A stretch of 64,000 nucleotides of DNA from an uncultured archaeon (lineage in GTDB: Archaea; Thermoplasmatota; Penumbrarchaeia; JASLWR01), in the NCBI GenBank assembly GCA_964430885.1, contig CAYSHM010000012.1, positions 1-64,000 on the forward strand, given 5' to 3'. The notes below the pieces were generated by a model that did no database searches, was not told where the DNA came from, and was given only the letters and a program-made list of their open reading frames with translations. Of the stretch, positions 14,263 to 32,706 are shown piece after piece (the stretch's first letter is position 1; the number at the start of each line of letters is the position of its first letter). Position numbers and translations under genes: made by a program.

Positions 14263-14423
14263 AACCTGATTTTATACTAATTTCACATTCACAACCTTAA
14301 AGGAGTGGGCTATAGTGTAGAAGACTTAACTAAAATCTTGTCCTACAAATTATTTATAATACCTTGCCGAAATCTTGATCATTTTATTATCTAACACACA
14401 TCTCATATATCAACGGTGATATA

Positions 14424-14789
14424 ATGCATGGAAATCCGATTGGTCCTTATAATAATTCTGCTAGATTAATGATCATAGTTTCAATTTTGGTTCTTATGAT
14501 TGGTGGCCTGCCTTCTACATTGTTCCTGTTTGCCCAAGCCCAGGAAGAAAACGGGGAGGCAGAGACCGTTCTTTATATACTTGATTACAACATTGAGGAT
14601 TACGGAACCGGAAAATGGAGATACGGGACCACAACAAATGATTACGAGGTCTGCTTTGCCAAGAACAGCGAAAAAAGAACTGCCAAGATCCAAACTTTAA
14701 ACAACTCCTACAAATTTACTTTGAAGCCTAGAGATGTATATGTACAATCAAATTCCACCAATGCCACTATACCTGGAATAAATAAATAA
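14424..14789 (+). CDS. N-terminal, signal-peptide-bearing fragment of the downstream giant protein (frameshifted)
   Basis: SD GGTGAT at 14415-14420. Hydrophobic signal LMIIVSILVLMIGGL...AQA. The stop falls inside an (AATA)3 tract, and the +1 frame from 14782 runs without a stop into the 14896 ORF. Confidence 0.7.
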   Translation: MHGNPIGPYNNSARLMIIVSILVLMIGGLPSTLFLFAQAQEENGEAETVLYILDYNIEDYGTGKWRYGTTTNDYEVCFAKNSEKRTAKIQTLNNSYKFTLKPRDVYVQSNSTNATIPGINK

Positions 14790-14791
14790 AT
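14777..14791 (+). repeat. (AATA)3-AAT tetranucleotide tract at the frameshift site
   Basis: Sequence ggAATAAATAAATAAATtattt. Removing one 4-nt unit fuses the two ORFs. Confidence 0.8.
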
Positions 14792-14895
14792 TATTTACGA
14801 AACAAAATGTACAGCCTATACTAAATGGTACTAGGATCATCTACGAAGGGATCTACAGCGATATTGATCTGGAATATCAGGTTTGTCTGGGAGAG

Positions 14896-17800
14896 GTGAA
14901 GGAAACATTTCTGATCAACACCCTATCGGATGATATTGAAGGAGATATGGTTTTTAGAACCACTGTGAATTATGATAATGCCTCTCTGGATGTATTTACT
15001 CGGACCAAACAGGTATGCAACACTACTTACTCCAAGGGAGATATCGAATTCAGGGATGCCCAAGGAAACATGGTTTTCATGATACCTAGACCGGTGATAT
15101 TTGATACGCCTGATAAGATTTTCGATAGACATTTAGGATCATGGGTCACCGATCCATCTTCAGTTGAAACTGCAGAGCTGAATTATATTCTGAAAATGGT
15201 CAACGGTCATTTGGATATCTATTATTTCGTCCCTCTCAATTACCTCAAATCAAATACTACCAACTATCCGGTTCACGTGGATCCGAGTATTAGTTCCAAT
15301 TCCATAATCGAGAGCATAAGGTATACTGGATTGGGAAACGGCAGCATAATGAAGGAGGATTCAAGCGGTATTTCCTTCATTTCCGGTTCTGAGATGGTTC
15401 TCTGCTCTGATCTCTCAATCATAAAGGGTGGGGTCCTTACATTGGACAATGTATCTCTGACCGTGGACAGTCCAGAGGAATGGGAATTCAATATATATGT
15501 TGAAACGGGCGGCACTCTGAACATTGTAAATGGAAGCCGGATCACCAAGGGGAACAATCAAAGCTGTTACGGGATAAGTTATTATCCAGGATCAAAAGGA
15601 TTTATTGAATCATCAAGTATTGAAAATATATCCAATAACGGTGCCGGGCTTCTCTTGATGTCAGACATTACAGTGATGAACTCCACAATAATGAACGGGT
15701 CAGGGAACGGTATCTGCGTACTGCGGAGCAGTCCATTCATCTCAAATAATAAAATATATTCAAACTCGAATTCGGGAATAATAGTTGGCTGCGGAGGCGC
15801 ACCGGAAATAATAAACAATAAGATATTCGGCAACACCTTCGGTATCAGATGGGATGGCGATTACATACACGATGATCTTTCCACCTTGGATATGATAGAG
15901 TATTGTGATTATGTCTATTCAAGTCAGGGTAGGATTTATCCTATGGATCTGGGAATGGAGAGCACTTTTACTACTGTAGAGCTCACGCTATGCACGGGTT
16001 CTCTCTATGACGCAGTGGTCATGGAAATCAAAAACAAGGATGATTGTATCTTCCAGTATGATATCCTTGACGGAAGGAGCAGTGGTGTGATCAAGGGACT
16101 TGAAAACTTAACCTCAGAGGTCACTGATATTTCGGGCATCAATCCATTTGAACATCCTACCATAAGATTGAGAGGAAAATTTCTCGGTAACCGAACACTC
16201 CAGCCATATCTAAATTCATGGAGGGTGCGTTTCAGACCTGTAAAATCGTCAGGTTGCGAGGGCGAGACCGGGAGTTACGATCTATCCCTCTCCGATGAGT
16301 TCGGGGGTTATTCATTGAATCCCCGATGGGATGAATCTGGTTTTCAGACACAGGATTCAGATATGGATGTGGACGGATGGGGATATTTGACACCCGTGGA
16401 TTACGGTTCGAATGGCTCTGGCTGGCACGGACCTCTTATCGAATCAAAAGTGCCGCTTTCTTGTGCATCTTTTATCTTGGAATCCCGACTCGATATTCGG
16501 AACTCATATTTTGGAATGGGCAGCACTAGGATTGAGCTATTAGACCGGAATGATGAAGTGATGTTCCGTCTGGTTTGGAGCGACAGCTGGAATTACCAAT
16601 ATACCTCCCGATTGACACTCTCTGATTCTGAAAAACAACTCTACGACAGCGGTGTGGGAACTGAATATAACGATTTCAGCGGAAAGCTGAAGCTTGAAAG
16701 ATCCAATTCAACAGATGTTGAGTTTTATATTGATACCGGTTCGGGATATCAGGAACTGGACCTTTCACAGGTCCCTGCACCAATCAGCCTTGCTTCTGCA
16801 ATTGCATCTGTAAGAATTTCTATGGCTGCTCATCAATATCACTCGTTACTGCCGGTCCAAAGGATTGATTGGTTCAATTTCAAAAGCATAGAGTATTATA
16901 AAACCGGAGCTGACAGCCCTATTCTTGATAATGTGAAATCTATTGAAGGAACCGTTTCACTTGGATCCAAAGGATTCGAGGACGGTAGTTCCAAGGATGA
17001 GTTCACAGGAAATGGGCTGGATGAAAGGTGGACCCGCTGGAATTTCGGTACCAATTATTCTGATATGGATGTTGACGGCAGTGGGTTTCTGGAACCCCTG
17101 GATTACGGAATAAATGATAGCAATTGGCACGGCCCGAATATCACCACGGAACTGGAAACTGCAGATAAGGGATTCATTTTGGAATGCGGATTTGATATAG
17201 AGAATGACCATATCAGTATGGGTAAGAGCGTTATTGAGCTGAGAAATTTCTCTGAAACTCTTTTCACTTGTACATGGTCTGATGTTTGGGCCGGAGCAGA
17301 TTGTTCCCGGATAATCTTAAGGGATAATGAAAAGGTTCTGTTCAACAGTGGAACTGGACTGGTGTTCAATGATTTCAAGGGAAGAATAAAACTTCAGAGA
17401 ATCAGCAATAATGAGATCCGGTTATTCATAGATTCTGGTTATGGGTACTGGGAATATTCCCTTCAGACCCAGCCAAGTCAGGTTTCATTGTCCTCTGCGG
17501 TTGAGAACTTAACTGTATCAATGCAGTCTTTTAGCACTTATCGGCCGCTGCCCAATAACAAGCTGGATTTCATATCATTTTCCAGCAGTTATCAGAAGAA
17601 GGGGAGTTATTTGACAGGCATGATCAGGACCTTGGATTGCACAATATTAGACACTCTTTCACTGGACATTCATGAGCCCGATGCTGAACATTTCATATAC
17701 GCTAGCTTAGTAGACAGTGTTTCTCTGGAACCAATTAAGGGATATGAGGGTGTAAGAGGAGATCTAATTGATCTGAGTGCGGCAGATGAATTAAAAGGGT

Positions 17801-20800
17801 CGGGAATACGGCTTTTATTCGAACTAAGGGGCAACGGGACCTCGACACCGTTTATCAAAGGATGGCGCCTCTACAATTCACCAATGGTTATGGGCAATGA
17901 AATATACAATAATTCTGAAGCAGGAATATTCTGCAATGAATCAGCCCCAACAATAACCGGAAACGTGATAAATTATAACAAGGAAGGGATTCGCCTTTTC
18001 AGAAGTTCCGCTGGAATGAGGTCAGGAGTTTCACCCCTCTGTTCATTCCAAACCCTCTTCAGGGATCCCTTCCTATCTGTGGACAAGATCCATTCGATGG
18101 AGAATTTATCTCAAGCCCATGGGGCGATCAGATTGAAAGACAATTCATCTGAGGGTCATTTGATATCTTCTATAATAGAGGCCAGGAAGGGGCAGGCCTG
18201 GGGTCATGTTCAGATCTTGAATTCACTTTACACCAATTCAACTCTGAACCTATCCATTCTGGATGCGGAGACTGGCGAGATGATCCCGAATTTTATGAAT
18301 CTAACAGGGGAATTTATTTCCCTAAATGAATTGGATCCTATGGTTTATCCCAAGATCAGGCTAAGAGCAGACCTCACGGGAAACGGTTCAAATTCGCCTG
18401 CACTGATTGAATGGCAGGTGACAGGTGGATCATATCAGGGATATGTTGAGACCTTCGAGGAGGGATATGGGGGAATATCAGTTATTGATAACTTAACGAT
18501 AGATGACGGAAAAGTCTCTTTTGAACAAAGGGATTGGTGGAATATGGATTATGTCTATCGGAGGGAACTGGTCATAACAGAGGAACTGGGGATCCAGAGG
18601 AACAATGAATCACATGACCTCAGTGTGGATTTGTCGTCATGGGAACACCAGCCCGTATCACAAAATGGAATTAGGCTTGTATCAAGTAATAATTCCGAAA
18701 TGGATAGGACGATCACCGCTTTCGTTCCAGGTGAATATCTGAATCTGTCCTTCAATGTTTCGGAGCTGTCTGCAAATGGTACTGTGACTTTCTATATCTA
18801 TTATGGATGTGAACAGCCGGATATCCCAGTATCTGCCAACATAAGCACTACGAAAATAATTATGGATGATGACCAATCGCTGTCCGACCTCGGAGGCGGT
18901 ACTGGGCCGGAGCATATTGAGAACCGATATGTCAATATGGATTTTATGCCGGATGCACCTGTTGGGGAAAAAGTGGTAAGGTTCAGCGGCAATGATATCA
19001 ATCAGACGACACCCTCTTATTGGTATCCCGAGATAAACTCCGCTGAATTGGAGATCCCCCAAGGTTATTTTTTTGGTTACTTTATGTATTGGGATAATTC
19101 AACAGAGGGGCCATCAGGTACAAAAGTAAGTCATCTAACTGCGGGTGTGGATGCCAATTTTTCAAATGGGGATTCCATGGGTACTCTGGATCCCTTTATC
19201 ACTGACCAGAATGGAATCCCCATAACTCCTGTCCAGCAGGTAACTAATAAATGCAGGGATAATTGGTATTACAGATATACCTCGCAACTTGAAGGTAAAA
19301 CCATTGATTCTTTTTTCCTTGCATATGATGACGGCGGTGTTAACGGCACCCTTCACGGGAATTTCACTGTATATTTTGATTATATATTCATAGGGCCCAA
19401 CCGGGGACCGGTGGAAAAGCTTATTGGAGATGAAGAAACCATCTATCCAGTATGCGGTCTAGTGGTCAGTGAAGAGATATGTCCTGACAGTATTTCCGGA
19501 AACAGATGGGGAGAGTTCAGAGCTGCAGATCATATCCCCGAAAATACGAGTATAACATATCAGGTTCTCCAAGGACAATTGGGATCGGAAGGGGCTCTGC
19601 AACCCGTGCCGGCGTATGAAAGTTTGACCTGCCCGATAATTGACCTAAATCCGATAGATACATCAATATATCCCTCTCTAAGGATTGGAGCTCTCTTTGA
19701 AGGTGATGGCAATCAAACACCTGAAATTGATCATTGGTCCCTGTCGATGAGTCCGATGATCAGCTGCGGTTCAATATCAGATAATGATATGAACTTCAAC
19801 GATATAGGAATATGGAGCAGTGAATCCATATCAGTCATACACGGCAACCGTATTCATGACAGCAGCATTTCAGGAGTCCTTTTGGATCAGTGCACCCGGA
19901 CCAATATTACTACAACCCATTTTGAATCCGGTTTGGAACAGGATATGGTGTTCGAAAGTTCGGGCCGTAAAATTATAGACATTCCAAGTACTCCCGGTTA
20001 TTTCTCAATGGATGGAATGTCTTTAATGGTAAACGCTTCAGGCTATAAATCCCTCCATGATAATGAAGGCATGATGGAGTTCAGTGCTTATATTGAGAAT
20101 TCATCCATGGATGCAGTTCTCAATTCTTCTCTTTCCTTGGATGTCCCAGATGAATGGTGCTTAGAATCACTCAGTGCATCTTTTGGCAGCCTCACAAGTA
20201 ACGGAACCGCGGTTTATCCGGAAGAAGTCGGGCTAAGATCAGAAATTAGCGGTCATGAAAAAGCATTCCTCGATCATTGGGAGTCAGTTCTATTCAACTC
20301 AACTGTTCTAATGGAAACCGCCAATCCAGTAAAAGTTAATTTCAGTAGTTCAGCAGATAATGTGAAAGCAAATATTTCGTGCAGAACCGATATCTGTACG
20401 GGTTCCAAGGTCCAGTGGAAGGAAGAGGAATGGGGTCTTTCAGCGCTTATAGAATTAAGTCCTCCCGAAAGTCCTGTGAAAGATCCGATTCTACGCATAT
20501 TCCTTCCTTCCGCTGGATCGTCAGGTCTCAATGGTTCTATAATTGATAACGGCCGTGATATTTCGGAATACCTGTATACGATCCAGGGTGTTAATGGAGA
20601 ACCCAGCTACATTCAGCTGCTGCTGTCGGATCTTCAGGAAATTGGCGATTCCTGGGAGCTGGCTGACGGTTCATGGCAGCTCAAGATTAATTTGATCTAT
20701 TCAGTTATTGATATTTCCATTGATGTTCATGATGATGGAATTGCCGATTGGGTTTCCGAGGGGGTTTTCAAGGGGCCCGATCAGATGATAGTTCAGCTTT

Positions 20801-23800
20801 CAAGTGATGGTTCATCTCGTTCATCTACCTCACAAAAATCGGCCCTTATAGCCGGACTAAATTCAGGATCAGCTTCGGCAATAACCCTTTCGTGCCTCAG
20901 ATTGAATGGATACTCAATCCCGCGTCTGACCGATAATGAGTTCAGGGATTGCAGTGTAGGTGTAATGATAAAGAACACACCTGAAGCAGTTATTTCATCC
21001 AATACTTTTATCTCCAATGGGATTGGATTGAAAGTGGAAGAACAAAAGGTTCCAAAGGATAGTTTCAACAGATTTCACGAAGAAGCAGATGAACTGAACA
21101 TTCTTTTGGATGATGAGGGCGGCAGGGCGGATCTGGTCAGAATACCCGCTGGCAGCTATATTGAGGATATGAATATGTATATATCGGGTGAAAGGATATT
21201 GCCCCAAGAGGTGTTTGGTCAAAAGAACCTCACTGTGGAAGGTCGTTCCATCAATAACACTCAATTGGCCCTTAATAGTAGTTTTTGGGTGAATGCACCC
21301 GCAGAATGGAATATATCAGAGGTAAAGGTTATTCCTTATAATGTCCATGGAGAAATGGGGGAGACGATGGCATTTTGGTCTCATGAACAAATTGAGCAGG
21401 CAGGGGTAAAATCGTCATCATGGACCAACGGTGATCGGTACTGCAATATGACCGCAGAACCTGAGGAATTTGAAGGGGAAGTGGCATGGATGAAATCCTT
21501 TGCTGGATCAGGAACATATGAAAGCTTTCTTTTGACATTGGAAGAAGGCGGTGCACTCAAGGCCTTCACAGGATCAGACCAGGATGTTCTTCAGGATGGC
21601 GTTGTTCTGTCCCAGCATGCGGGAAACGGGAGCACACCCTGCTTTGAAGGGCTTATAGAGTCGGGTTCGGGTACACCATTGGTGATATATTCCAGCGGAG
21701 AGGAAACGGGGGGCGGTGTTTTCCAATATGACAAACTGGTTTTCAGGAAATTTATTAAATCTGAATGGGGTCAGAGGGTAGAATATGATATTGAGGGTAT
21801 TACCAGCTTGAAGGCGATCTCGGTTCCCGGGACCGATAAGGCAGTGATACTAGCGGGAAGCAGAATAGATGCCAGGCTGTATGCTCTGCTTTGGAACGGA
21901 TATAAAATATCCGACCAATGGACCCTCAGTGAGAACCATTCGGGAGAACAGGACGAATATGACATGTCCTATGGTGTGGACGGATATTCTCTAGGATCGG
22001 TCTTCCAGGAGGGTGAGGATGAAATATGCTTCTCAAGTTATGATGGCTTATCCTGGAGTGAAAAAATCAGCTATCTGATTGAAACTGGCGGCCAGAGCTT
22101 ATCGTCGGTGAAAATGACCGAAATGACATTGAACGATGAGGTATTGTTACTGACAGCAGGGGATGGCGGTTCCCTTTGGGGATTAAACTGGAATGTAGGA
22201 GAGAATATTACTGACCTTGCACTGCTTACGGATTCGCTGTCAGGAAATTCCCCTCATGCCTATGATTTGCTCCAGCCTGATCCTTGGTCTGATTTGATCG
22301 CTCTATGGTCCAATGGGTCTAATGATGTGGAATGGAGAAGATTCAATGGAACTCTTTGGAGCGGAAAGAGCAACATCACAGGGATGATAGTCAATGATAC
22401 ATACAATATGTCACATGCAGAAGGTATTGAATGGCTCTCAGCTATCGGAGGTTCTTCAGCATTCAGTAATGAAATTATCGCACTCAGTTCCACCGGGAAT
22501 CTTGTTTCATTCCAGTGGAACGGCACATCCCTCAATTCAAGTAGATTGCTTGCCGAAAATGTATCTTTGAAGGGAATGGGTTCCTTTTCTTCAGCCATTC
22601 TCAAACCCGATATTTCTTCACTCCCACTATACGGTATATCTGTTCAGCACAATACAGGCGTCACCATGATCCAAAGGAACTTACTCCATGAAGGCGAAGT
22701 GGCAGTATTCAACTCCGAGGAATTGGCCGGAGGGTCGGATCACCTATTCTCTGTAAATAAAACATCAAAGCGGAATGCCAGTGTAGCAATAACCGCAGAA
22801 GCGGAAATTTTCAATAGAACGAATTTGGAATGGAATGAGTTCGATTCAGGTTATTATGCAAATATAGCCTTATGGGGTCCAGATATCAATATATCATCCG
22901 CCGTATTGAGATTGGACCTTCCTCACTATTTCTATTCTGATATCAAAGTAAATGCGACCAGCCTCAACATCACTCTTCCAAGGAGCTCAATATTAGATGG
23001 AACAAGGCAATTGGGTTTCATAACAATAGACCTGGCTTCTTCGGGCATCATAGGCGAAAAGTGGAATAGTGACGATGGTCTCATCGATCTCAATATCACA
23101 CTCTACTATACTGCTCAAAAACTGGACATTCAATTTGGATATGATGACAAAGCCCCCTTATTTACATTAAATAATTGGTCTGGTGAACGAACTGAGCTGA
23201 ATCTTACCGGAAAATACATCATCCAGGAACTGAACCGTTTATCATCACTCTGTGGAGTGGATAAGGGCTATGTCCAGATCCCATTGGTTCTGATGTCCGA
23301 TTCATTCTGGAATATAACCATTGATGGATTGGATGTGAATATTTCGAATCCCGTAGTTCTTCAGGAAAACCTCCTATATGATAATGTGGAAGGAATGAAT
23401 CTGGAAGCAGACTGCATTGTATCATGCAATACGATCTCCAACTGTTCAGGGTCCGGAATTACATGTTCGGATGTTGGGGGATATGTACAGGGGAACACTT
23501 TTTCCCAAAATCATATTGGAATTGAGATGGAAGATTCCCGGACCCTATTGTACGGAAATGATATCAATAACTCATATGGTATCCTGGCAAATACTATTGG
23601 AATTTATTCAAAGAACTCGGGTGCCCGCATATCGCAGAACCTTATTACTGGAGCCCAAAAGGGAATAGTCCTTAAAGGTAATGATAACAGCTCAGAGGTT
23701 ATTTGGAATGAAATTGTGAACAATGATATAGGGCTCTTCTCAAACAGCTCAGGCGGTTTGATCGATTCCAACCTTATTCAAGGGCTCAGTGGTCTAGGCC

Positions 23801-26800
23801 AGTGCGGCATCTTGACCGTCAATTCAAGTATGACGGTTCAGGACAATATCATCCAGGATAACCCGATTGGCATCAACTGCACGGGCACCGGGGTTCCCCT
23901 GTTTGATCATGCCGTCGTTTTGAACTTGAAAGGCAACCGTATAGCTGGCAACAGCATAGGGCTTTTCACAGGTCTAAATGCAAGCCTGAGAAGTGAGGGA
24001 TCATTTTTCATGAGCAACGCAGAAGCGGTGAGGATCGAACAGGCAGAGGATAATTTTTTCAATGATTCTTCATTCATTCAGAACGGTAAAGCACTCACCG
24101 TGATAAACGGAAAGGGCTCAATATACAGAAGCTCATTCCGCGGAGATGGGCCCTCATTTTCCACGGGGACTGGCGGATATATCTTTCTCAGCGATGTTTC
24201 TTTCCAGGGGGGATCAATGTCCGAACTCTCCAATATGGCGGTCAATGCCAGCCTGTACAGGACAGTTGAGGTCCGGATTTTGGATGATAATAATCAGCCC
24301 ATTTCAGAGGCGGAAGTTGAAATTTGCGATGGGAGCGGTGAATCCGTATTCAATATAGATACGGATCAATATGGTTCCGCGGGGGAGTTATCTCTTCTAT
24401 TGGGAAGCTGGGATAACAGCGGAAACGGTACCCCTGTATTCAGTTCCTTTACTCCCCATGGGATCAAGACAGGCTATTACCACCAGGGTCTTTGGACCAA
24501 TGCAACGGATATGCTTCTTCCGGACAATGGACCCGGTTTATTTGTATGGGAATCATATTTGGGTCAGGATACCGATAACGATGGAATAATCGATGGGAAG
24601 GAGATATATGTTATCGGATCGGACGAGAATGATCCGGATTCTGACGATGATGGACTAATGGACGGTACGGAAATTGGAATAAACGACACGACGAAGCCAT
24701 CCTCAACCGGGGCGGGTTTCATACCCGACATGGATCCTGGTAATGTGACCCATCCCCTTATCAATGATACAGACGGCGACGGTCTCTCGGATGGGGTTGA
24801 GGATAATGACTGCAACGGTAGATTGGACGATCTGGAGACCGACCCTTCCATGTGGGACACTGACGGTGATAGAATTCCTGACGGCTGGATCGACTGGAAC
24901 CTGAATGGAAATCCCGACCCTGGTGAATATGAGGATTTGGACCTCGATGGGGTATTGAATAAATTACCATGGAGCGAAGGGGGTGAGACCGATCCGCTTA
25001 GTTGGGACACCGATGGAGGCGGAATTGATGATCTTACAGAATTGGAAACCGGTCAGGATCCCTTAGCTGCACAGAACGAATGGAATGATGCAGACGCAGA
25101 TTGTGATGGATTAGCCGATAGCTATGAGAACTTCCTCGGAACCCATTCTGATAACCCGGATTCCGACGGCGACGGCGTGGATGACGGCCGGGAAATGATC
25201 ACAGGTCTAGACCCGTTATCCCAGGACAGTGATAACGATGGCTTAGGTGATGGTACCGAATTATGGGATAATGAAATCGCCTGCCGCACCGTTGATTGGT
25301 ATGAGGCGGAGTATCATATAGCTAGCGATCTTGCATCTATCAATGAGGATTTTGCAGCTTCAGTCAATCCTAAAACAGGTCGGCCCTATGCGGCAGTCCA
25401 CCAGCATGATGATGTAGGATTCCAGGATCAGGAGATAGGTCCCTTGATCAGATATGTGGTTGATGGCAGGACCCATGAACCCGGAGAATATAAGTTGATC
25501 CTTAAGATAAGGACAGACGGATCCTGCAAAGGAATAATCAGATACAAGACCCAAAATGTGGAACCGGAGGAGAAAAGATTTGAACTTCATGGTCCGTGTG
25601 AATATAAGTTCATAACTTTTGGATTCAGGGTTCCAGAAACACCCGGGAACTCGGGAGTTGGTTTTGTTTATACAATAGAACTGTATCTAGAGTATCCTGC
25701 AGATGAAGCAATCATAGACAAGTTTGCGGTCATAGAACTGAATAGCAGTGCGGATCATTTTACCAAACTTATCACCGATCCCTTGGACCATGATATTGAC
25801 GGCGACGGATTGTATGACGGGGTGGAACTCAGATCCAATATTCACGATGATATTGATGATGTCGTCAGCGGGGAGATGGAAAACGATCAAAAAATAAAAG
25901 ATTACTTTAACAACATCATCATTCTGGAGGCTGAAGAGCTGTCGCAGCTGCAAAACTGCACGCTTGCGGACGATGGAGAAGCCAGCGGTGCCAAGGTTCT
26001 TTCCGGATACTATTGTGATAATCTGAATGGAAACAACCAGCTGACCCCTGGACGTTTGGACCCCGATCAGCCTTACATTTATGACCATGTCTGCTTGGAT
26101 ACTTGGTATACCGTTCCTCTGCCTGAAGGTGAATACAGGGTTTTTATCCGCTATCGAAGCGTCATAAGTCAGGTGCAGGAGGATATTGGTTTTCATTCTC
26201 TCCTAGGATCCAGCAATGAATATGGGGGCCTAACTTCCTTTACCAATAACTATATTATTTCGGAAATCGGGGGTTTTGTAATGGTCCATAGCGATATACA
26301 GATGATAGCGGATCCACCTGTAAGGATCTTCTTGGCCTCAGAGGAAATCCTGTTTATCGACCAGCTGTATATTGTGAGGATATCCAATGAATCCGGAGAG
26401 AAATTATTGGATAACAAAGGAATATCCGACGTATTACTGGGTGATACCGACGGGGACGGACTTTCCGACGGAATGGAGGCCAGGGTTGTTATGAGAACCT
26501 CCTTCGAGTCCAATATTGAACTGGGTGATTGGGTGGTGGCGGACCTTGATCAGGACGGCATGATGGATTGGTATGAGGATTCGGTTACGGATCTGATGCA
26601 GCGAAAATATTCCTGCCAGCATATCAGTGATGAACTGCAGGATTCCTATGTGAATATTAGCACCCTTCAGGAGATTAGGATCAGGAATCCGGTTTCACAG
26701 GGAATTGAAGATAGAGCTTTCTTTGCTTACAGGATGTCTCCGGGAGGTCCAGATATACCCGTAATAGTGATCAGGGACAGCCAGGACAAATGGTGTTTCT

Positions 26801-28290
26801 TCACCCGTTCTCTGAAATCCTTTGCAAATGCCAGTGAACTGTCAATTCAGCCTGTCAATTCCCATTTAGGTGAAGTATGGTGGATGGACCCCTTTGACAG
26901 CGATACCGATGATGATCTCCTTCTTGATTCCCTGGAAGTGGAGGTGTCTGTGAGAAGTAATTTCTGGTTTGATGAACATTTCCTTTCAAATTCTGTGGGC
27001 CAGGGCAGCGCGCTTTTCATTTCAGGGGCTGGAGGAACTTTGGCAGAACTCAGAATTCCGGTGGAGATGATCAATTCAACAACAAAGGAATGGGTTCGTA
27101 TTACAGGCAGGGCCCCGTGGGGTAATTATCTCTCCCGCGGCAGGTCCCAGTTCGGTTTGGAGATTCCCGGTGATTTTGTAGATATATTGCCGTTCCAGAC
27201 CGATGGGACGCTTAGCGGAAGCTGGAGCACCAGATGCGCAGCCGATGGGGAGATAGCAATGTTCAGGAATAAATTGAATATCAATGACCTTGGTCCTTCA
27301 GTTCTTTTCTCCATGAACGAATTGCTCCAGTCTAAGTACGACCCATTATCTCCTGATATTGACGGGGATGGTCTGCCTGACGGCGAAGAGCTATACTTCT
27401 ACGGGACCGATCCCCACCGATTTGATACTGATGGAGATGGAATGTCGGATTACTGGAATGTTCATTACGGGAATCCTGAAGATGATCCGGACGGCGATGG
27501 TTTTACAAATCTCGAGGAATACAACGGATTTCTGGCAACAGGTTGGAATTCAACAGATCCAATGAGGCCGACCATTCTCATAGAATTGGACTATGTGAAA
27601 GACTGTTCGGATAACGTATGGAAGCCTTCAAATGATGTAATTGAACAGGTTGAAAATGCTCTGAGGAATAAGGGTATAGAACTGAGAATCCTATTGGATG
27701 ATGAGATCGATGCCGAAACAGATTGGAGATTCTCCGGAAGCTATCTGGCCATTGGAAGCTGCGACAGCGTTCTGGAGGCTTACAGGGGCAAGGAGAAATA
27801 TCTGCATATGATAACGTCATACAAAACAGATATGGATTGGCTCGGGTATGTGTTCGGTTCTACAATTACGGACCCGGCATCCCAGATATTGGAGAGAACC
27901 GGGAGCTTTGTATGGATGGGTGAGATTGAGGATTATCATGGAGCTTATGATATTTTTGAGAATAACCAGATCACAGTTGAGCACATGTATGCAAAGAAGA
28001 TCCTCCATCAAATAGGCCATATGCTTCAAGCCAGTCACGAAGGGGGAATTGGTAGATGGAATTATTATAACTCTATGTTATCCGAATCGGAAATGATCTT
28101 TCCTGAAGCCCAGAACAACATTGATAAATGGAAAATGGCCCTATTGGGTTGGAACAACCAGGATCCGGATATGGGTGCTTTGGAAGAAGTAGGCTGGGCC
28201 GGACTCTCCAGAGAAAGTGTAAATCAGTTCGAGCTGTTAAATAAATTGTCGGTGGATACAGCGGAGATAAGGGAAAAACCGGAGGTTTAA
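14896..28290 (+). CDS. Giant secreted protein: right-handed beta-helix (PbH1/NosD-like) segments, repeated beta-sandwich modules, DxDxDG Ca-binding repeats, C-terminal metzincin-like domain
   Basis: 4464-aa ORF with many I.NN.I..N..GI rungs, many D(T/S)DGDG..DG.E repeats and HQIGHMLQASH...NSML near the C-terminus. No C-terminal TM. Confidence 0.8.
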   Translation: MKETFLINTLSDDIEGDMVFRTTVNYDNASLDVFTRTKQVCNTTYSKGDIEFRDAQGNMVFMIPRPVIFDTPDKIFDRHLGSWVTDPSSVETAELNYILKMVNGHLDIYYFVPLNYLKSNTTNYPVHVDPSISSNSIIESIRYTGLGNGSIMKEDSSGISFISGSEMVLCSDLSIIKGGVLTLDNVSLTVDSPEEWEFNIYVETGGTLNIVNGSRITKGNNQSCYGISYYPGSKGFIESSSIENISNNGAGLLLMSDITVMNSTIMNGSGNGICVLRSSPFISNNKIYSNSNSGIIVGCGGAPEIINNKIFGNTFGIRWDGDYIHDDLSTLDMIEYCDYVYSSQGRIYPMDLGMESTFTTVELTLCTGSLYDAVVMEIKNKDDCIFQYDILDGRSSGVIKGLENLTSEVTDISGINPFEHPTIRLRGKFLGNRTLQPYLNSWRVRFRPVKSSGCEGETGSYDLSLSDEFGGYSLNPRWDESGFQTQDSDMDVDGWGYLTPVDYGSNGSGWHGPLIESKVPLSCASFILESRLDIRNSYFGMGSTRIELLDRNDEVMFRLVWSDSWNYQYTSRLTLSDSEKQLYDSGVGTEYNDFSGKLKLERSNSTDVEFYIDTGSGYQELDLSQVPAPISLASAIASVRISMAAHQYHSLLPVQRIDWFNFKSIEYYKTGADSPILDNVKSIEGTVSLGSKGFEDGSSKDEFTGNGLDERWTRWNFGTNYSDMDVDGSGFLEPLDYGINDSNWHGPNITTELETADKGFILECGFDIENDHISMGKSVIELRNFSETLFTCTWSDVWAGADCSRIILRDNEKVLFNSGTGLVFNDFKGRIKLQRISNNEIRLFIDSGYGYWEYSLQTQPSQVSLSSAVENLTVSMQSFSTYRPLPNNKLDFISFSSSYQKKGSYLTGMIRTLDCTILDTLSLDIHEPDAEHFIYASLVDSVSLEPIKGYEGVRGDLIDLSAADELKGSGIRLLFELRGNGTSTPFIKGWRLYNSPMVMGNEIYNNSEAGIFCNESAPTITGNVINYNKEGIRLFRSSAGMRSGVSPLCSFQTLFRDPFLSVDKIHSMENLSQAHGAIRLKDNSSEGHLISSIIEARKGQAWGHVQILNSLYTNSTLNLSILDAETGEMIPNFMNLTGEFISLNELDPMVYPKIRLRADLTGNGSNSPALIEWQVTGGSYQGYVETFEEGYGGISVIDNLTIDDGKVSFEQRDWWNMDYVYRRELVITEELGIQRNNESHDLSVDLSSWEHQPVSQNGIRLVSSNNSEMDRTITAFVPGEYLNLSFNVSELSANGTVTFYIYYGCEQPDIPVSANISTTKIIMDDDQSLSDLGGGTGPEHIENRYVNMDFMPDAPVGEKVVRFSGNDINQTTPSYWYPEINSAELEIPQGYFFGYFMYWDNSTEGPSGTKVSHLTAGVDANFSNGDSMGTLDPFITDQNGIPITPVQQVTNKCRDNWYYRYTSQLEGKTIDSFFLAYDDGGVNGTLHGNFTVYFDYIFIGPNRGPVEKLIGDEETIYPVCGLVVSEEICPDSISGNRWGEFRAADHIPENTSITYQVLQGQLGSEGALQPVPAYESLTCPIIDLNPIDTSIYPSLRIGALFEGDGNQTPEIDHWSLSMSPMISCGSISDNDMNFNDIGIWSSESISVIHGNRIHDSSISGVLLDQCTRTNITTTHFESGLEQDMVFESSGRKIIDIPSTPGYFSMDGMSLMVNASGYKSLHDNEGMMEFSAYIENSSMDAVLNSSLSLDVPDEWCLESLSASFGSLTSNGTAVYPEEVGLRSEISGHEKAFLDHWESVLFNSTVLMETANPVKVNFSSSADNVKANISCRTDICTGSKVQWKEEEWGLSALIELSPPESPVKDPILRIFLPSAGSSGLNGSIIDNGRDISEYLYTIQGVNGEPSYIQLLLSDLQEIGDSWELADGSWQLKINLIYSVIDISIDVHDDGIADWVSEGVFKGPDQMIVQLSSDGSSRSSTSQKSALIAGLNSGSASAITLSCLRLNGYSIPRLTDNEFRDCSVGVMIKNTPEAVISSNTFISNGIGLKVEEQKVPKDSFNRFHEEADELNILLDDEGGRADLVRIPAGSYIEDMNMYISGERILPQEVFGQKNLTVEGRSINNTQLALNSSFWVNAPAEWNISEVKVIPYNVHGEMGETMAFWSHEQIEQAGVKSSSWTNGDRYCNMTAEPEEFEGEVAWMKSFAGSGTYESFLLTLEEGGALKAFTGSDQDVLQDGVVLSQHAGNGSTPCFEGLIESGSGTPLVIYSSGEETGGGVFQYDKLVFRKFIKSEWGQRVEYDIEGITSLKAISVPGTDKAVILAGSRIDARLYALLWNGYKISDQWTLSENHSGEQDEYDMSYGVDGYSLGSVFQEGEDEICFSSYDGLSWSEKISYLIETGGQSLSSVKMTEMTLNDEVLLLTAGDGGSLWGLNWNVGENITDLALLTDSLSGNSPHAYDLLQPDPWSDLIALWSNGSNDVEWRRFNGTLWSGKSNITGMIVNDTYNMSHAEGIEWLSAIGGSSAFSNEIIALSSTGNLVSFQWNGTSLNSSRLLAENVSLKGMGSFSSAILKPDISSLPLYGISVQHNTGVTMIQRNLLHEGEVAVFNSEELAGGSDHLFSVNKTSKRNASVAITAEAEIFNRTNLEWNEFDSGYYANIALWGPDINISSAVLRLDLPHYFYSDIKVNATSLNITLPRSSILDGTRQLGFITIDLASSGIIGEKWNSDDGLIDLNITLYYTAQKLDIQFGYDDKAPLFTLNNWSGERTELNLTGKYIIQELNRLSSLCGVDKGYVQIPLVLMSDSFWNITIDGLDVNISNPVVLQENLLYDNVEGMNLEADCIVSCNTISNCSGSGITCSDVGGYVQGNTFSQNHIGIEMEDSRTLLYGNDINNSYGILANTIGIYSKNSGARISQNLITGAQKGIVLKGNDNSSEVIWNEIVNNDIGLFSNSSGGLIDSNLIQGLSGLGQCGILTVNSSMTVQDNIIQDNPIGINCTGTGVPLFDHAVVLNLKGNRIAGNSIGLFTGLNASLRSEGSFFMSNAEAVRIEQAEDNFFNDSSFIQNGKALTVINGKGSIYRSSFRGDGPSFSTGTGGYIFLSDVSFQGGSMSELSNMAVNASLYRTVEVRILDDNNQPISEAEVEICDGSGESVFNIDTDQYGSAGELSLLLGSWDNSGNGTPVFSSFTPHGIKTGYYHQGLWTNATDMLLPDNGPGLFVWESYLGQDTDNDGIIDGKEIYVIGSDENDPDSDDDGLMDGTEIGINDTTKPSSTGAGFIPDMDPGNVTHPLINDTDGDGLSDGVEDNDCNGRLDDLETDPSMWDTDGDRIPDGWIDWNLNGNPDPGEYEDLDLDGVLNKLPWSEGGETDPLSWDTDGGGIDDLTELETGQDPLAAQNEWNDADADCDGLADSYENFLGTHSDNPDSDGDGVDDGREMITGLDPLSQDSDNDGLGDGTELWDNEIACRTVDWYEAEYHIASDLASINEDFAASVNPKTGRPYAAVHQHDDVGFQDQEIGPLIRYVVDGRTHEPGEYKLILKIRTDGSCKGIIRYKTQNVEPEEKRFELHGPCEYKFITFGFRVPETPGNSGVGFVYTIELYLEYPADEAIIDKFAVIELNSSADHFTKLITDPLDHDIDGDGLYDGVELRSNIHDDIDDVVSGEMENDQKIKDYFNNIIILEAEELSQLQNCTLADDGEASGAKVLSGYYCDNLNGNNQLTPGRLDPDQPYIYDHVCLDTWYTVPLPEGEYRVFIRYRSVISQVQEDIGFHSLLGSSNEYGGLTSFTNNYIISEIGGFVMVHSDIQMIADPPVRIFLASEEILFIDQLYIVRISNESGEKLLDNKGISDVLLGDTDGDGLSDGMEARVVMRTSFESNIELGDWVVADLDQDGMMDWYEDSVTDLMQRKYSCQHISDELQDSYVNISTLQEIRIRNPVSQGIEDRAFFAYRMSPGGPDIPVIVIRDSQDKWCFFTRSLKSFANASELSIQPVNSHLGEVWWMDPFDSDTDDDLLLDSLEVEVSVRSNFWFDEHFLSNSVGQGSALFISGAGGTLAELRIPVEMINSTTKEWVRITGRAPWGNYLSRGRSQFGLEIPGDFVDILPFQTDGTLSGSWSTRCAADGEIAMFRNKLNINDLGPSVLFSMNELLQSKYDPLSPDIDGDGLPDGEELYFYGTDPHRFDTDGDGMSDYWNVHYGNPEDDPDGDGFTNLEEYNGFLATGWNSTDPMRPTILIELDYVKDCSDNVWKPSNDVIEQVENALRNKGIELRILLDDEIDAETDWRFSGSYLAIGSCDSVLEAYRGKEKYLHMITSYKTDMDWLGYVFGSTITDPASQILERTGSFVWMGEIEDYHGAYDIFENNQITVEHMYAKKILHQIGHMLQASHEGGIGRWNYYNSMLSESEMIFPEAQNNIDKWKMALLGWNNQDPDMGALEEVGWAGLSRESVNQFELLNKLSVDTAEIREKPEV

Positions 28291-28292
28291 AA

Positions 28293-31200
28293 ATGGGCAG
28301 AATAATTATAAATGCGGAAAAAATCCTTGCTGTCACGATAATTGTAGTTATGATTATTTCTGGACTACTGGCAATTCTTCTCTATGAGGAAACCGTTATT
28401 GAAGCATGCCCCAAACAAAATCCTTCCTTTAGTGTTTCACAATCCACGGAACGATATTCAAGGGCTTCCGGTCCGGCCAACCCTTTTCTCACCTGTGATG
28501 ACGACCACAACATATACATGGCATGGGAGGAACGGGGTAATTCCAGCGATATAGTAGTGCTGGGGAAATATGATCAATCAGGCTCATTATTGTCGGACAT
28601 GATTCTGGGGATGATCGAAAAAAACAATCCTGCCTCAAGTCATCCGCCAGAGATGGTTGTTGATGACAACCAGGTAGTTCATTTATTCACCAAGGGCATG
28701 AACGGATTGAATTACTTCAGGTATGATCCCCTGGATGGGTCAGTTCTTCATAAGCTGATAAATATTTCCAGTGAATCCCGTTATTATCATCATCCTGAAA
28801 TGATCTTAGATGAGAACAATAATATTCATTTGCTGTTCACGGTATCCCACGAGGATGTAAGAGGTCTTTTGAATGATGGTCTTTACTATATAATGATGGA
28901 TGATGAAGGGAGAAAGATCAAATCAGGAACTCAAATCGCTAACGGTTCTGTTTCACCCTATACCGATCCCCGTATCTATATTGACCGGAAAGGTTCACTG
29001 CATGTTTCCTGGAAATCGGAAGGTTTGCTGCCTGGAGTTGAACATATCTCTTACAGCACCCTCAATAACGAATGTTCAATGATCTCTCAACCTATTGTTA
29101 TAAACAATACCTCCGTAAACAATGACAGCCTGAACATCAAAAATCTAGGTGTATTTCCTGATGATAAGGGCCAGGTTTGTTTTGTCTATTTCCTTTCGCA
29201 TCATAGAACAATAAACGGATTCAAGGATACGGATGTGCTCAAGGGGAGGTTTATCTTAGTGAAAAGGGATCTTCTATATGGTAATGCAACCTCAAAGGAG
29301 ATTCTTTTGAATAGAACCCAGGATCACTATCTGGAATGTATGGATCTCGTTGATAACGGTCACGGACGATTTGATCTAGCTTGGTCTGATAACAGAAGCG
29401 GAAATTGGGATATTTACCGCCAGTCCTTCAATTCTACTTCCGCGCCGATTTCTCCTGAATCAAAAGTCTCCGGTACCCAAGGGAATTCAACCGGGCCTGC
29501 TATGACAATGCTCTCGAACAATATGGTAGCAATATCTTTCATCAACGATGCTGGCGGGAAAAACAATCTCATCGGTCCGGCAATAGACGCTACCTACCTT
29601 CCTACCTTCCTTTGGGATGACGATTTTTCCGAGATACCAATAGAGCCGGGTGAGGAGAAAACTCTTCGACCGTTCATTTCTAATCAGGGTAGTGTCAGCG
29701 ATACATATCACCTTGAACTCCTTGATCTGCCCTCTGAATGGACTCACGAATTCCTATCAAACGATTTTACATTGAACCCGGGGAAGAACCGCAGTTTTGA
29801 TCTGAATGTTGCCGCTCCTTCATTAGTGCCAGAAGATATGTGGGTGAACGTGACCATCAAGTGTTTTTCAGAAGGACTTCAATCTGTGGTTGAACATATG
29901 CACATCAATCTGTTCCTCAATATCACTTTAGGATGTGAGATAACAGAGTATAATGTCAGTGATAGGGTCTATCCTGGATTGAATTACACTGTAGAACTGC
30001 GTGTGGAAAATACCGGGAACATTCCCGAAACTTTGCACTTAGGTTATTCATCTCCCTTGGAATTATTGGAAATCGAGTTTGATAAAAATGATATCCTCCT
30101 CTTACCTGGACAAAGAGATATGGTGAAGTGCACAATGCTGGTAAAAACAACCAATCCCGATGATAAGTTCAATATCACTTTCAATGCAAGTGTTGTAGGA
30201 CAAGCGGGTTATTATAATTCAGTGGTTCTCGAATTCACTGTTCTGGACCGCAGTGTTGTCATTGCATCTTCAAGCGGTGAAGAAACCATTTATCCTACAC
30301 CTGGTGCGGAGTACTCTCACAGATTAAGGATCAGAAATCCTGCTTCTATCGGCCAAAATGTGAACCTCAATGTCAGCCAATACCCTATCAACTGGACCTG
30401 TAGATTAGAAAATAAATCGTTGTTCCTGGAGGCGGGAGGTGAGCAGGAAGTAGTTCTATTGGTCAATCCTGATTCTGATGTGAGATTAAATTCAGTCCAT
30501 ACAATTTTAATATCCGTTGTTTTAAGAGAGGGTGAAATTTCATTGGAAACCTATGATATCACCGCCGTCCCAAAGGATTATTCCTTGGAATTGGGACCTG
30601 ATCATTTTTCAGGTGCAGTACAATCTGGACAGAACTATGCTGTCAGGTTGACGATCCGGAATACCGGCTGGAATAACAACTATTCTTTTTCAATGTCCGA
30701 TCTCCCGCTGGGCTGGGGTGCAGTGGGTTTGGATCGTCCTTTTTCACTGATCAAAGGTGAGGGAATTCAGAAAGATATGATACTGCTTCTTCCTGAGGAT
30801 GCTGAACCCGGAGATTACAACCTTTCTCTTCTGGTGGAATGCTATCCTGAATCCATGACTGTTTTCATTCAGCTCATTGTATCTGACAGTAAAGCTTCAG
30901 ATAATACAACAGAAGAAAAAGATTCCGACGGGGACGGTTATAACGATACATATGAACTATCCGAAGGAAGTGATCCCTTTAACAAGGCTTCTACGCCCCT
31001 GGACTGGGATGGAGATGGGGTGATCAATGAAAAGGACCATTATCCACGGGATCCCAAGAGATGGGCCAAAGAAGAGGACAATCGATTACTGGTTGTTATT
31101 GTTATCACCATTATGTTGCTGGTTCTGCTGTTTGCCGGGGCCATTGCCTATTCAAAGCTGAAAAATGTTATGAACCATGAAACCAGACAATCCATCTATG

Positions 31201-31598
31201 GATATATTGAGGATCATCCGGGTAAACATTACAGAGCTATGGCCAGAGACCTTGACCTTCCTAGGGGCACACTTTCCCATCATCTGAAAGTTCTAGTAAG
31301 AGAGGATAAGGTGAAATGGACGAAGGAATCGGGTTACAAACACTATTATCCCCGTGATCAAACACCCAGAGTAACAAATAAGACAATCTTAACCCCAATG
31401 CAGGAGCAGATATTCAAGATAATCAAAAGAAAACCCGCACGGACCTATAGAGATTTGGCAAGAATTGTCGGATGCACCCCTGAGAATACCATTTATCATG
31501 TTAACAATCTCAGAGATAAGGGTTTGGTTTATGGTGAAAAGGAAGGAAGGGAATACCATTGGTATCCACAGGAGGAACGGGCTGTGGGCAAGGTCTGA
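28293..31598 (+). CDS. Single-pass membrane protein with large ectodomain (propeller-like, NEW3/CARDB-like Ig repeats, DxDGDG repeats) and cytoplasmic tandem winged helix-turn-helix
   Basis: N-terminal signal/TM, repeated V.N.G....Y.L Ig units, TM LLVVIVITIMLLVLLFAGAIAY, then RQSIYGYIEDHPGKHY...TLSHHLKVL and LTPMQEQIFKII...NTIYHVNNLRDKGLV. Confidence 0.85.
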   Translation: MGRIIINAEKILAVTIIVVMIISGLLAILLYEETVIEACPKQNPSFSVSQSTERYSRASGPANPFLTCDDDHNIYMAWEERGNSSDIVVLGKYDQSGSLLSDMILGMIEKNNPASSHPPEMVVDDNQVVHLFTKGMNGLNYFRYDPLDGSVLHKLINISSESRYYHHPEMILDENNNIHLLFTVSHEDVRGLLNDGLYYIMMDDEGRKIKSGTQIANGSVSPYTDPRIYIDRKGSLHVSWKSEGLLPGVEHISYSTLNNECSMISQPIVINNTSVNNDSLNIKNLGVFPDDKGQVCFVYFLSHHRTINGFKDTDVLKGRFILVKRDLLYGNATSKEILLNRTQDHYLECMDLVDNGHGRFDLAWSDNRSGNWDIYRQSFNSTSAPISPESKVSGTQGNSTGPAMTMLSNNMVAISFINDAGGKNNLIGPAIDATYLPTFLWDDDFSEIPIEPGEEKTLRPFISNQGSVSDTYHLELLDLPSEWTHEFLSNDFTLNPGKNRSFDLNVAAPSLVPEDMWVNVTIKCFSEGLQSVVEHMHINLFLNITLGCEITEYNVSDRVYPGLNYTVELRVENTGNIPETLHLGYSSPLELLEIEFDKNDILLLPGQRDMVKCTMLVKTTNPDDKFNITFNASVVGQAGYYNSVVLEFTVLDRSVVIASSSGEETIYPTPGAEYSHRLRIRNPASIGQNVNLNVSQYPINWTCRLENKSLFLEAGGEQEVVLLVNPDSDVRLNSVHTILISVVLREGEISLETYDITAVPKDYSLELGPDHFSGAVQSGQNYAVRLTIRNTGWNNNYSFSMSDLPLGWGAVGLDRPFSLIKGEGIQKDMILLLPEDAEPGDYNLSLLVECYPESMTVFIQLIVSDSKASDNTTEEKDSDGDGYNDTYELSEGSDPFNKASTPLDWDGDGVINEKDHYPRDPKRWAKEEDNRLLVVIVITIMLLVLLFAGAIAYSKLKNVMNHETRQSIYGYIEDHPGKHYRAMARDLDLPRGTLSHHLKVLVREDKVKWTKESGYKHYYPRDQTPRVTNKTILTPMQEQIFKIIKRKPARTYRDLARIVGCTPENTIYHVNNLRDKGLVYGEKEGREYHWYPQEERAVGKV

Positions 31599-31625
31599 GG
31601 TATAAGGGAATGGAAATAAAAGAAG

Positions 31626-32147
31626 GTGAAAATGATGAATGGGTCCGAAGCTGAAAATAACGAATATTCAAAACCACAGGAAACATATGAAGATAACAAA
31701 CCCCTGGATTTGGTACATAAACCGAAATATCACAGAAGGCCAGTTATGAAGAGGATCCGAATTCTGCGCTATCTCAAGAACAATCCGGGCAGTCATTATC
31801 GTAAGATATTCAGGGATCTCGACATATCAAGGGGCTGTCTTTCATACCATTTAAAAAATTTGGAGGAGGGGGGAAAAATATTTACCATCCGCACAGGCCC
31901 TTACAAGTTCTATTACACTGGAGAGGACCAGATTATGAGAGAACCATTCACACCCATGCAGAAAAGGATTATCCAGATCCTTGCCACCCGAAATTCCAAT
32001 ACCTACAAGAAATTGTCGGAAAGATTGGATAAAAGCCAGGAGAGCCTGATGTATCACATGAAGAGACTGAAGGAACGGGACATGGTTGTTCCGGTAAGAC
32101 ACGGAAACACGGTCCATTGGTTTCTGACCAAGAAAAATGACGTATGA
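31626..32147 (+). CDS. Soluble tandem winged helix-turn-helix transcriptional regulator (ArsR/MarR-like)
   Basis: RIRILRYLKNNPGSHY...LSYHLKNLEEGG and FTPMQKRIIQIL...SLMYHMKRLKERDMV. Clearly paralogous to the C-terminus of the upstream gene. Confidence 0.85.
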   Translation: MKMMNGSEAENNEYSKPQETYEDNKPLDLVHKPKYHRRPVMKRIRILRYLKNNPGSHYRKIFRDLDISRGCLSYHLKNLEEGGKIFTIRTGPYKFYYTGEDQIMREPFTPMQKRIIQILATRNSNTYKKLSERLDKSQESLMYHMKRLKERDMVVPVRHGNTVHWFLTKKNDV

Positions 32148-32331
32148 TCGATCTAAATCCCTATCTTCTCACTCCTTCGTTAGTTTGCTGGAAGTCCTTT
32201 TTATAAAATCCGGTAAGTTTTAATTAGTAGGTCATTCTTTATGGGTGAAGTGGTTGGAAGGTCAGTTCTCCACAGAAATATCGCTGACCGGCCCATCATT
32301 CGCTTTCGCTCACAAATGTTCGCTCATAAGT

Positions 32332-32406
32332 GGGCCCGTAGGGTAGCTTGGTTTATCCTCGTGGCTTTGGGAGCCATGGACTCCGGTTCAAATCCGGGCG
32401 GGCCCA
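32332..32406 (+). tRNA. tRNA-Pro (anticodon TGG)
   Basis: Acceptor GGGCCCG/CGGGCCC plus discriminator A, D-arm GGGT/ATCC, anticodon arm GTGGC-TTTGGGA-GCCAT, T-arm TCCGG-TTCAAAT-CCGGG. No encoded CCA, followed by a T-run. Confidence 0.95.
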
Positions 32407-32706
32407 TTTTTCGGTTGTTTCACTACTCAAAGTGGTCTCTCCCGGATTTTTCAAACCCAGTATGATTTCTCCAAAATTTCACTTACTCGTCCAGTCGGTC
32501 CCTAATTCATTTTTTAAATAATGACTCCCTCCCCTTGAATTTCTATCGAAATTCTCTAGCCTGCGTGATTCTTGATAAGGCGCTGGACTTTCCCTAGGTC
32601 TTACTGGAGAATGTCTTCGTAGTCCTTGAAAAGACATCAACTTTTTAAATATTGATAAATTTTAATATATTAACTCTTTATAATATTACACTGCTATATT
32701 ACCTCT

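Follow-up and report, generated by a model that had tools for sequence, protein, structure and literature searches.

Coupling of events at the cell surface to transcription is little known in archaea whose genomes are not rich in two-component systems. Among the closest described systems are transmembrane transcription regulators (TTRs), in which a DNA-binding domain and a transmembrane region are united in one protein; Demey, Gumerov, Xing, Zhulin and DiRita (2023) report 1,384 such proteins for archaea, spread over 367 of 404 species (PMC10269533). The regulators ToxR, TcpP and CadC are described as consisting of a sensor outside the cell, one transmembrane helix and an inside winged helix that acts from the membrane, together with an operon-encoded partner (the co-components ToxS/TcpH; PMC11323476, PMC13042144), and for CadC, a bacterial TTR, proteolytic activation has been published (PMC11484849). 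ArnR and ArnR1 of Sulfolobus acidocaldarius have, by the account in PMC13286277 (citing Bischof et al. 2019), been studied experimentally as archaeal transcription factors that reside in the membrane and control surface structures. Here, we analyze a gene row in a 64,000-nucleotide stretch of DNA from an uncultured marine archaeon of the Thermoplasmatota (assembly GCA_964430885.1, contig CAYSHM010000012.1, positions 1 to 64,000 of the forward strand; henceforth the window), in which the gene for a giant surface protein is followed by genes for a predicted membrane-tethered regulator, P0001, and for a soluble paralogue of its DNA-binding tail, P0002.

We hold with moderate confidence that P0001 is a membrane-resident one-component regulator controlling its own giant-protein operon, with P0002 as a related factor that shares its sites or as a partner of the tail. 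The protein architecture as such is already catalogued as a class. New here are the conserved linkage of giant and regulator, the promoter element shared between two operons, and the pattern in which regulator modules are paired and fused. An earlier, sequence-only reading of the locus had stated that no characterised example was known. This was too strong, since ArnR/ArnR1 have been characterised and the TTR class has been censused, as the sources above describe; for the particular family of P0001, the PF24266 tandem winged helix-turn-helix (wHTH) family, our literature search found no characterised member.

The sequence-only reading had also described three co-oriented genes separated by 2 and 27 nucleotides (nt). 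Orientation and gaps hold, but the giant is not encoded by one open reading frame (ORF): four plus-strand frames follow one another in the source genome (G000, contig C12), of which the first two are both pieces of the giant, as comparison with G002, a genome from another genus of the same family, indicates. The features of the row are as follows.

14333..14377, + strand: putative promoter of the gene row; AAATCTTG copies at 14333-14340 and 14370-14377 around a TATA-like TTTATAAT at 14353-14360
14424..14789, + strand: ORF1, N-terminal piece of the giant, 121 amino acids (aa); open frame, alignment to the G002 giant
14779..14790, + strand: frameshift site; AATA-repeat tract, with the giant frame shifted by +1 against ORF1
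14782..28290, + strand: giant open frame of 4502 codons, measured stop to stop; NosD/right-handed beta-helix, TSP3
28293..31598, + strand: P0001, predicted tethered regulator, 1101 aa; domains and hydropathy
28323..28385, + strand: N-terminal transmembrane segment or signal anchor of P0001, residues 11-31; hydropathy
28386..31085, + strand: ectodomain of P0001, residues 32-931; domain scan and composition
31086..31154, + strand: transmembrane helix of P0001, residues 932-954; hydropathy
31155..31595, + strand: predicted cytoplasmic tail of P0001; wHTH1 at 31179-31358 (PF24266, HTH_20, HTH_5), wHTH2 at 31401-31529 (HTH_24)
31626..32147, + strand: P0002, soluble tandem-wHTH paralogue, 173 aa; wHTH1 at 31749-31922, wHTH2 at 31947-32102
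32196..32210, + strand: T-rich stretch 3' of P0002, possible end of the transcription unit
32331..32407, + strand: tRNA-Pro (TGG), downstream border of the gene row; tRNA call

Behind the transmembrane helix of P0001, a tandem wHTH had been proposed from the letters alone, and the domain scan bears this out. PF24266 (HTH_HVO_0163_N) matches residues 963-1022 with 69.7 bits (cut-off 31) and HTH_24 matches residues 1037-1079 with 44.1 bits (cut-off 21.9), while HTH_20 (39.4 bits, cut-off 27) and the ArsR-type HTH_5 (29.3 bits, cut-off 22) likewise exceed their thresholds. In P0001 and P0002 alike, the N-terminal wHTH of PF24266 exceeds the gathering score and a second wHTH comes behind it, which places both in the same family. 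An AlphaFold2 (AF2) model of residues 955-1101, computed from a 30-row alignment, reached a pLDDT of 87.6 and shows two helix-helix-helix-strand-strand units, i.e., two winged helices. The first helix of wHTH1 starts directly behind the transmembrane helix in this model, so that the first domain would be pressed against the membrane. A profile search of the PDB with the tail returned 5duk_A, a 'putative DNA binding protein', at 9e-19, followed by PH1932, ArsR and SmtB.

The predicted topology places this tail inside the cell. Transmembrane segments were read from hydropathy windows (residues 1-31 and 927-954); they agree with the ectodomain of ca. 900 aa and the C-proximal helix described before and add an N-terminal anchor at residues 11-31 that had been missed. 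The ectodomain has an isoelectric point (pI) of 4.6 and 25 N-x-S/T sequons, or 2.78 per 100 aa, compared with 1.12 predicted from its composition and 0.43 in four housekeeping proteins of the window. The 147-aa tail has a pI of 9.7 and 0.68 sequons per 100 aa. Both indicators agree with a tail that lies in the cytoplasm. By the definition of the class, namely a DNA-binding domain and a transmembrane region in one protein, P0001 as predicted is a TTR.

We propose that the ectodomain is glycosylated and fast-evolving. It is all-beta and includes Ig segments of NEW3/CARDB-like type as well as a TSP3 repeat (30921-30983). When P0001 was searched by tblastn against 41 related genomes, matches were obtained in 40, confined to residues ~840-1100, and no homologue of the ectodomain beyond its stalk was found in any of the 41. 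A word-index search with the ectodomain matched at the TSP3 stalk with a coverage of 5-9% and beyond that retrieved a single weak protein of CARDB/NEW3 type; the same search with the tail retrieved the tail itself only, and a search of related loci with the tail alone returned nothing. A single-sequence AF2 model of ectodomain residues 36-445 was poor (pLDDT 45.9), and structure-atlas features of residues 40-440 gave a best score of 0.89, with BNR/sialidase-like clusters at 0.84-0.86 that serve as a lead only.

Compared with the TTRs of PMC10269533, P0001 likewise separates its sensor from its DNA-binding part by one helix. It differs in that a pair of ArsR-type winged helices at the C-terminus forms the DNA-binding part, and in its family ectodomains reach more than 1000 aa. 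The terms 'thermoplasm', 'winged helix', 'HTH_20' and 'HTH_24' have zero occurrences in the text passages of that census, whose supplementary lists may include such proteins. The ToxR/CadC-like logic suggested for P0001 fits by predicted domain content, topology indicators and family size. The likeness is one of principle: P0001 has the reverse orientation, with the ectodomain N-terminal and the DNA-binding part C-terminal, and two tandem ArsR/PadR-like winged helices instead of the OmpR/PhoB Trans_reg_C fold, for which P0001 gave no match at E<=0.01. Its candidate partner would be a paralogue of the tail rather than a periplasmic co-sensor as in the ToxS/TcpH systems. ArnR and ArnR1, by their description, have an N-terminal HTH and no large ectodomain, unlike P0001, and as far as our analysis reaches they belong to another family. 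The best sequence-profile relatives of both tail domains are ArsR/SmtB repressors, PDB 5duk and PH1932 (1uly), which are soluble homodimers of single domains, whereas P0001 has two domains per chain and is predicted to be tethered to the membrane.

Ahead of P0001, the giant frame contains NosD/right-handed beta-helix domains and, near its C-terminus, TSP3 repeats. It has no transmembrane anchor, whereas all four other large proteins scanned in the window carry a C-proximal transmembrane helix; the giant's only hydrophobic signal or anchor segment is located in ORF1, which overlaps the 4502-codon frame, in a different reading frame, within the AATA-repeat tract. Using residues 1-1000 of the giant frame as query against 12 relatives, we found, in G002, an orthologue (42% identical) that is a single intact ORF of 4415 aa (contig C11, 9023-22270) with a hydrophobic N-terminal segment. 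ORF1 aligns to residues 13-103 of this protein (E 2.7e-4) and the giant frame aligns from residue 125 on (40% identity over the first 700 aa, 28% over 2496 aa). The intact G002 giant is thus colinear with ORF1 plus giant frame, which means that the gene in the window differs from the intact form by a frameshift. From the sequence, the lesion at 14779-14790 may be a recent mutation or pseudogene, an assembly error, or a site of recoding. The 13.5-kb frame is still open, which argues against old decay. A 293-nt contig from another sample (X3) carries letters identical to 14507-14799, reaching only 10-17 nt past the frameshift site, where 31 nt would be needed to bridge it. Near the giant's C-terminus, at 28006-28038, a motif HQIGH...H (His-x3-His-x5-His) occurs that we take to resemble the zinc site of zincins and metzincins, with Gln in place of the catalytic Glu. 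The motif does not recur in the G002 giant, and neither it nor the C-terminal domain around it had a match in Pfam or the PDB.

In G002, the intact giant gene is directly followed on the same strand by a tethered member of the P0001 family (1060 aa, with transmembrane helix and module), whose ATG lies about 22 nt past the giant's stop codon behind GAGGTGA, and the flanking genes are unlike those of G000. With 12 family genes in longer frames and ~4000 genes assumed, the chance of finding a family gene directly behind the G002 giant is ~0.003. In the window, the corresponding start is likewise preceded by a ribosome-binding motif, GGAGGT, 7 nt 5' of the P0001 ATG and within the 3' end of the giant gene. 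The linkage sought in other genomes therefore recurs in a second genus for giant and tethered regulator, and as far as two genera can show, the two appear to form a unit. The G002 regulator has an entirely different ectodomain, composed of a NosD beta-helix and PKD. What is conserved is thus position and tail, not a receptor-ligand surface, and the suggestion that the giant is a specific ligand of P0001 finds no support. Nor is the soluble gene kept in this locus, and its membership in a conserved unit is not supported.

P0002 had been regarded as a free-standing copy of the P0001 module. It does contain the same two domains without a transmembrane helix (PF24266 at 55.9 bits, cut-off 31; pI 9.9), and the motif pairs on which the comparison was based are present, but it is not a recent local copy. 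BLASTP aligns P0002 to the P0001 tail with 35% identity over 128 aa (E 3e-25), and the five other modules of G000, P0002 included, range from 23 to 35% identity to this tail. In a quick tree of 59 modules, P0002 falls in a same-family clade that does not contain the P0001 tail and is not its sister; the rows of this tree were best matches to P0001 or P0002 among the loci collected and thus represent a biased sample, in which soluble forms arose at least four times. About as close to the tail as other paralogues and not its sister, P0002 is a paralogue from the wider family and not a fresh duplicate. Its start is likely the ATG at 31632, which is preceded by a Shine-Dalgarno-like GAAGGTGA and would widen the gap to P0001 from 27 to 33 nt. 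A TATA-like TATAAG at 31601-31606, between P0001 and P0002, leaves room for a promoter of P0002's own, and a further TATA-like TTAAATAA lies at 28237-28244 inside the 3' end of the giant gene. A scan for sigma-70 promoters and intrinsic terminators returned hits at the level of shuffled sequence; this method does not apply to archaea. A search for sequencing runs that contain the gene row listed none from RNA.

G000 contains exactly six genes with the full module, four of them tethered (contigs C12, C27, C4 and C1) and two soluble (C12 and C1). Ahead of the second soluble paralogue (C1:121994-122876), at a distance of 22 nt and in the same orientation, lies an ORF of 105 aa that includes three hydrophobic segments; the two may constitute a 'split' tethered form. 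A 906-aa membrane protein is encoded downstream of this paralogue. In relatives the family is more abundant, with 23 (G001), 19 (G002), 27 (G003) and 33 (G012) matches at E<=1e-8. A profile search of 1.84 billion representative sequences returned 13,622 matches at E<=1e-3, 7,663 at 1e-10 and 576 at 1e-30. Of the 150 matches listed, 123 have a module that ends within 40 aa of the C-terminus and is preceded by at least 99 aa, with more than 600 residues ahead of the module in 40 of these 123. Free-standing forms of 145-190 aa are also common. The family is very large and archaeal, and it probably belongs to Thermoplasmatota.

The survey proposed for neighbours of such genes, which we carried out on five genomes, revealed that modules recur side by side in three arrangements. 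The order tethered, then soluble occurs in G001 (C44, 1132 aa and 163 aa) and G003 (C5, 1137 aa and 156 aa), which represent one orthologous locus with no giant upstream, and G002:C7 and G003:C5 each have a soluble gene in the vicinity of a tethered one. Four pairs consist of two soluble genes (G001:C79, G001:C12, G003:C7 and G003:C16). Finally, two full modules, that is four winged helices, are joined in one chain in a soluble protein of G001 (C77, L088, 1522-2619, 365 aa) and in a soluble protein of G003 that is cut by a contig end (C38, L089, 1635-2750, 371 aa). Adjacent family pairs number 3 or 4 per genome in G001 and G003, compared with ~0.15 expected by chance for ~25 family genes among ~4000 genes, a gene number assumed from genome size. 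Such clustering fits tandem duplication and modules working together alike, while the fusions favour the latter. Together, pairs and fusions lend circumstantial support to an interplay between modules.

Upstream of the giant operon of G002 lies a 15-mer that occurs exactly three times in 4.4 Mb, each time a few bases ahead of a TATA-like box: ahead of this operon, of a soluble family member (C66) and of a PAS-STAS/STAS operon (C68). A copy matching at 13 of 15 positions is located directly after the regulator gene, and at three mismatches the count equals the control (79 vs 69). The promoter of the G000 row contains a related AAATCTTGTCCTAC at 14333-14346, 6 nt before the TATA-like TTTATAAT, and a second AAATCTTG at 14370; the first AAATCTTG copy (14333-14340) aligns with the G002 15-mer. 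We consider this shared element a reasonable candidate for an operator of the operon's own regulator. The C68 operon (L087, 57-1514) encodes a PAS-like/STAS protein of 268 aa followed by a small STAS protein of 126 aa, which we read from their translations as an RsbR/RsbS-like pair.

Combining these data, we envision the following. A glycosylated, fast-evolving ectodomain would stand outside the cell, one helix would span the membrane, and the ArsR-type winged-helix pair directly beneath it would bind DNA while staying tethered. P0001 would be translated from the same gene row, and presumably from the same transcript, as an un-anchored giant beta-helix surface protein, and its likeliest target would be the promoter of this row, with the element conserved in the orthologous operon of the other genus. 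P0002 would probably act on the same or related operators, or pair with the tail.

Several observations weigh against this reading. The giant gene is frameshifted in the assembly and hence may be dead, and a wHTH1 that is flush with the membrane, as the model has it, may hinder access to DNA. In Foldseek searches, the best matches of the two-domain model are, at TM-scores of about 0.38, ScpB, RPC62 and ESCRT-II, which are protein-binding or mixed tandem winged helices, and matches to ArsR, SmtB and SlyA are limited to single domains. The NCBIfam ArsR/SmtB model NF033788 remains below its curated cut-off of 55 for both proteins (42.4 bits for P0001, 45.3 for P0002), so at whole-protein level neither matches the metalloregulators, the domain-level HTH_5 and HTH_20 matches being above theirs. 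The promoter word fares no better in G000 at large: the 7-mer AATCTTG occurs 420 times genome-wide, compared with a mean of 438 for permuted 7-mers, and precedes 2 of 210 large genes with an N-terminal transmembrane segment versus 13 of 1152 others. An unbiased comparison of 7-mers upstream of the same two gene sets yielded only A/T-rich words, and a search for the promoter pattern in the window was at chance (6 matches vs 7.4 expected). In the G002 locus, a TPR gene stands where the soluble gene would be; in G006 and G009, the gene behind the giant homologue encodes a small protein with an N-terminal transmembrane segment and without the module; and none of the three other tethered genes of G000 has a giant or a soluble gene next to it. 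Moreover, large genes are cheap neighbours in this genome, where 214 of 1916 called ORFs reach at least 1000 aa and 34 at least 2000 aa (simple call of ORFs of at least 100 aa), an unusually high proportion of giants, which are mostly of surface type.

It might then be asked whether the three genes are coupled at all, or adjacent only through the abundance of giant surface genes and a tandemly duplicating family. The five further large surface-protein genes in the window would fit such a view, as would the swapped ectodomain and the missing soluble gene in G002 and the TATA-like boxes in the 3' ends at 28237-28244 and 31601-31606, which could give separate transcripts. We nevertheless consider an uncoupled row improbable given gaps of 2 and 27 nt with ribosome-binding motifs, the recurrence of the giant directly before a tethered member despite different flanks, and the promoter element common to both operons. 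The Foldseek matches (ScpB entries 4i98, 3w6j, 2z99 and 6juv, and ESCRT-II entries 2zme, 3cuq and 1u5t) and the membrane-flush tail raise a different prospect, that the tail is a tandem winged-helix protein adaptor that joins surface proteins to a cytoplasmic machine and does not bind DNA. However, TM-scores of about 0.35-0.40 and rmsd values of 10-18 Å reflect merely two winged helices in series, sequence profiles indicate DNA binders of the ArsR/SmtB/MarR/PadR type, both domains are basic (pI about 9.6), and free-standing forms are common, which together make an adaptor the least probable of the explanations that we weighed.

Two further explanations were weighed. In Bacillus subtilis, the ArsR-type autorepressor SdpR is captured by SdpI, a membrane protein encoded next to it. 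By analogy, soluble P0002 could be the true transcription factor and the tethered tail a decoy or docking site that captures or frees it when the ectodomain is engaged. The membrane-flush wHTH1, the tethered-then-soluble locus of G001:C44/G003:C5, the soluble pairs and two-module proteins, the excess of adjacent family pairs in G001 and G003, and a weak match of P0002 to the SdpR family (38.6 bits vs a cut-off of 100) would agree with capture; SdpI, unlike P0001, lacks a winged helix. P0002 is, on the other hand, not conserved beside the G002 giant-regulator pair, and the soluble gene of the G001:C44/G003:C5 locus is more distant from P0002 (26-29% identity) than others are (37-38%). Soluble forms have at least four origins in the quick tree, three of the four tethered genes of G000 have no soluble neighbour, and plain tandem duplication also yields clustered paralogues. 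We therefore judge such sequestration rather improbable. Release by proteolysis, for which the sequence-only reading had invoked Notch and SREBP, would instead free the tail as a soluble factor upon a signal at the ectodomain. The published proteolytic activation of CadC speaks for such release, the short distance from transmembrane helix to wHTH1 would make it useful, and G000 encodes two M50 site-2 proteases and one rhomboid. One M50 gene (C4:167741-169336, 531 aa) lies two genes upstream of a tethered paralogue (C4:165518-166459, 313 aa) on the same strand; a 280-aa membrane protein is encoded between the two. Yet this neighbourhood was not seen in G001, G002, G003 or G012, where M50 matches and family matches never fall in one contig region, and neither the operon nor any of the 28 window ORFs scanned encodes a member of a protease family. 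The zincin-like motif of the giant does not fill this gap, given its Gln for the catalytic Glu, the lack of Pfam or PDB support, and its absence from the G002 giant. Proteolytic release thus finds no support at this locus, and we deem it quite improbable, if slightly less so than an adaptor.

Outside the gene row, four large proteins with a C-proximal transmembrane helix are encoded at 258-10490, 32707-35892, 45039-48656 and 50172-54710 of the window. Their families are FG-GAP/Laminin_G_3/DUF2341, PKD, and PKD/CarboxypepD_reg, with one lacking a Pfam family, and the PKD protein has an acidic, proline-rich cytoplasmic tail. At 40604-42595, the window encodes a DNA ligase of the NAD-dependent, bacterial type, including a BRCT domain, although the genome is archaeal. 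A look-up of the CTP synthase gave best identities of 51-59%, to metagenome-assembled genomes of Thermoplasmata, Methanomassiliicoccales and Hadarchaeota, which makes the phylum likely.

Since the architecture of P0001 is already catalogued, the added value of this locus is limited. The family to which it belongs comprises thousands of sequence clusters, with 19-33 copies per genome in close relatives, and the locus offers a compact test case for it: the promoter fragment is defined, a free paralogue accompanies the tethered tail, and the gene of the giant surface protein is linked to that of the regulator in two genera. A bolder extension of the favoured reading, which we regard as unlikely but worth stating, is a split surface-sensing device. 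Here, the tethered regulator would keep the anchorless giant on the cell, and loss or engagement of the giant would be signalled inward through winged helices that act with the free paralogue, by hetero-oligomerization or by capture and release, on the conserved promoter element. If true, this would constitute a self-reporting circuit of adhesin and regulator for which no archaeal counterpart has been described.

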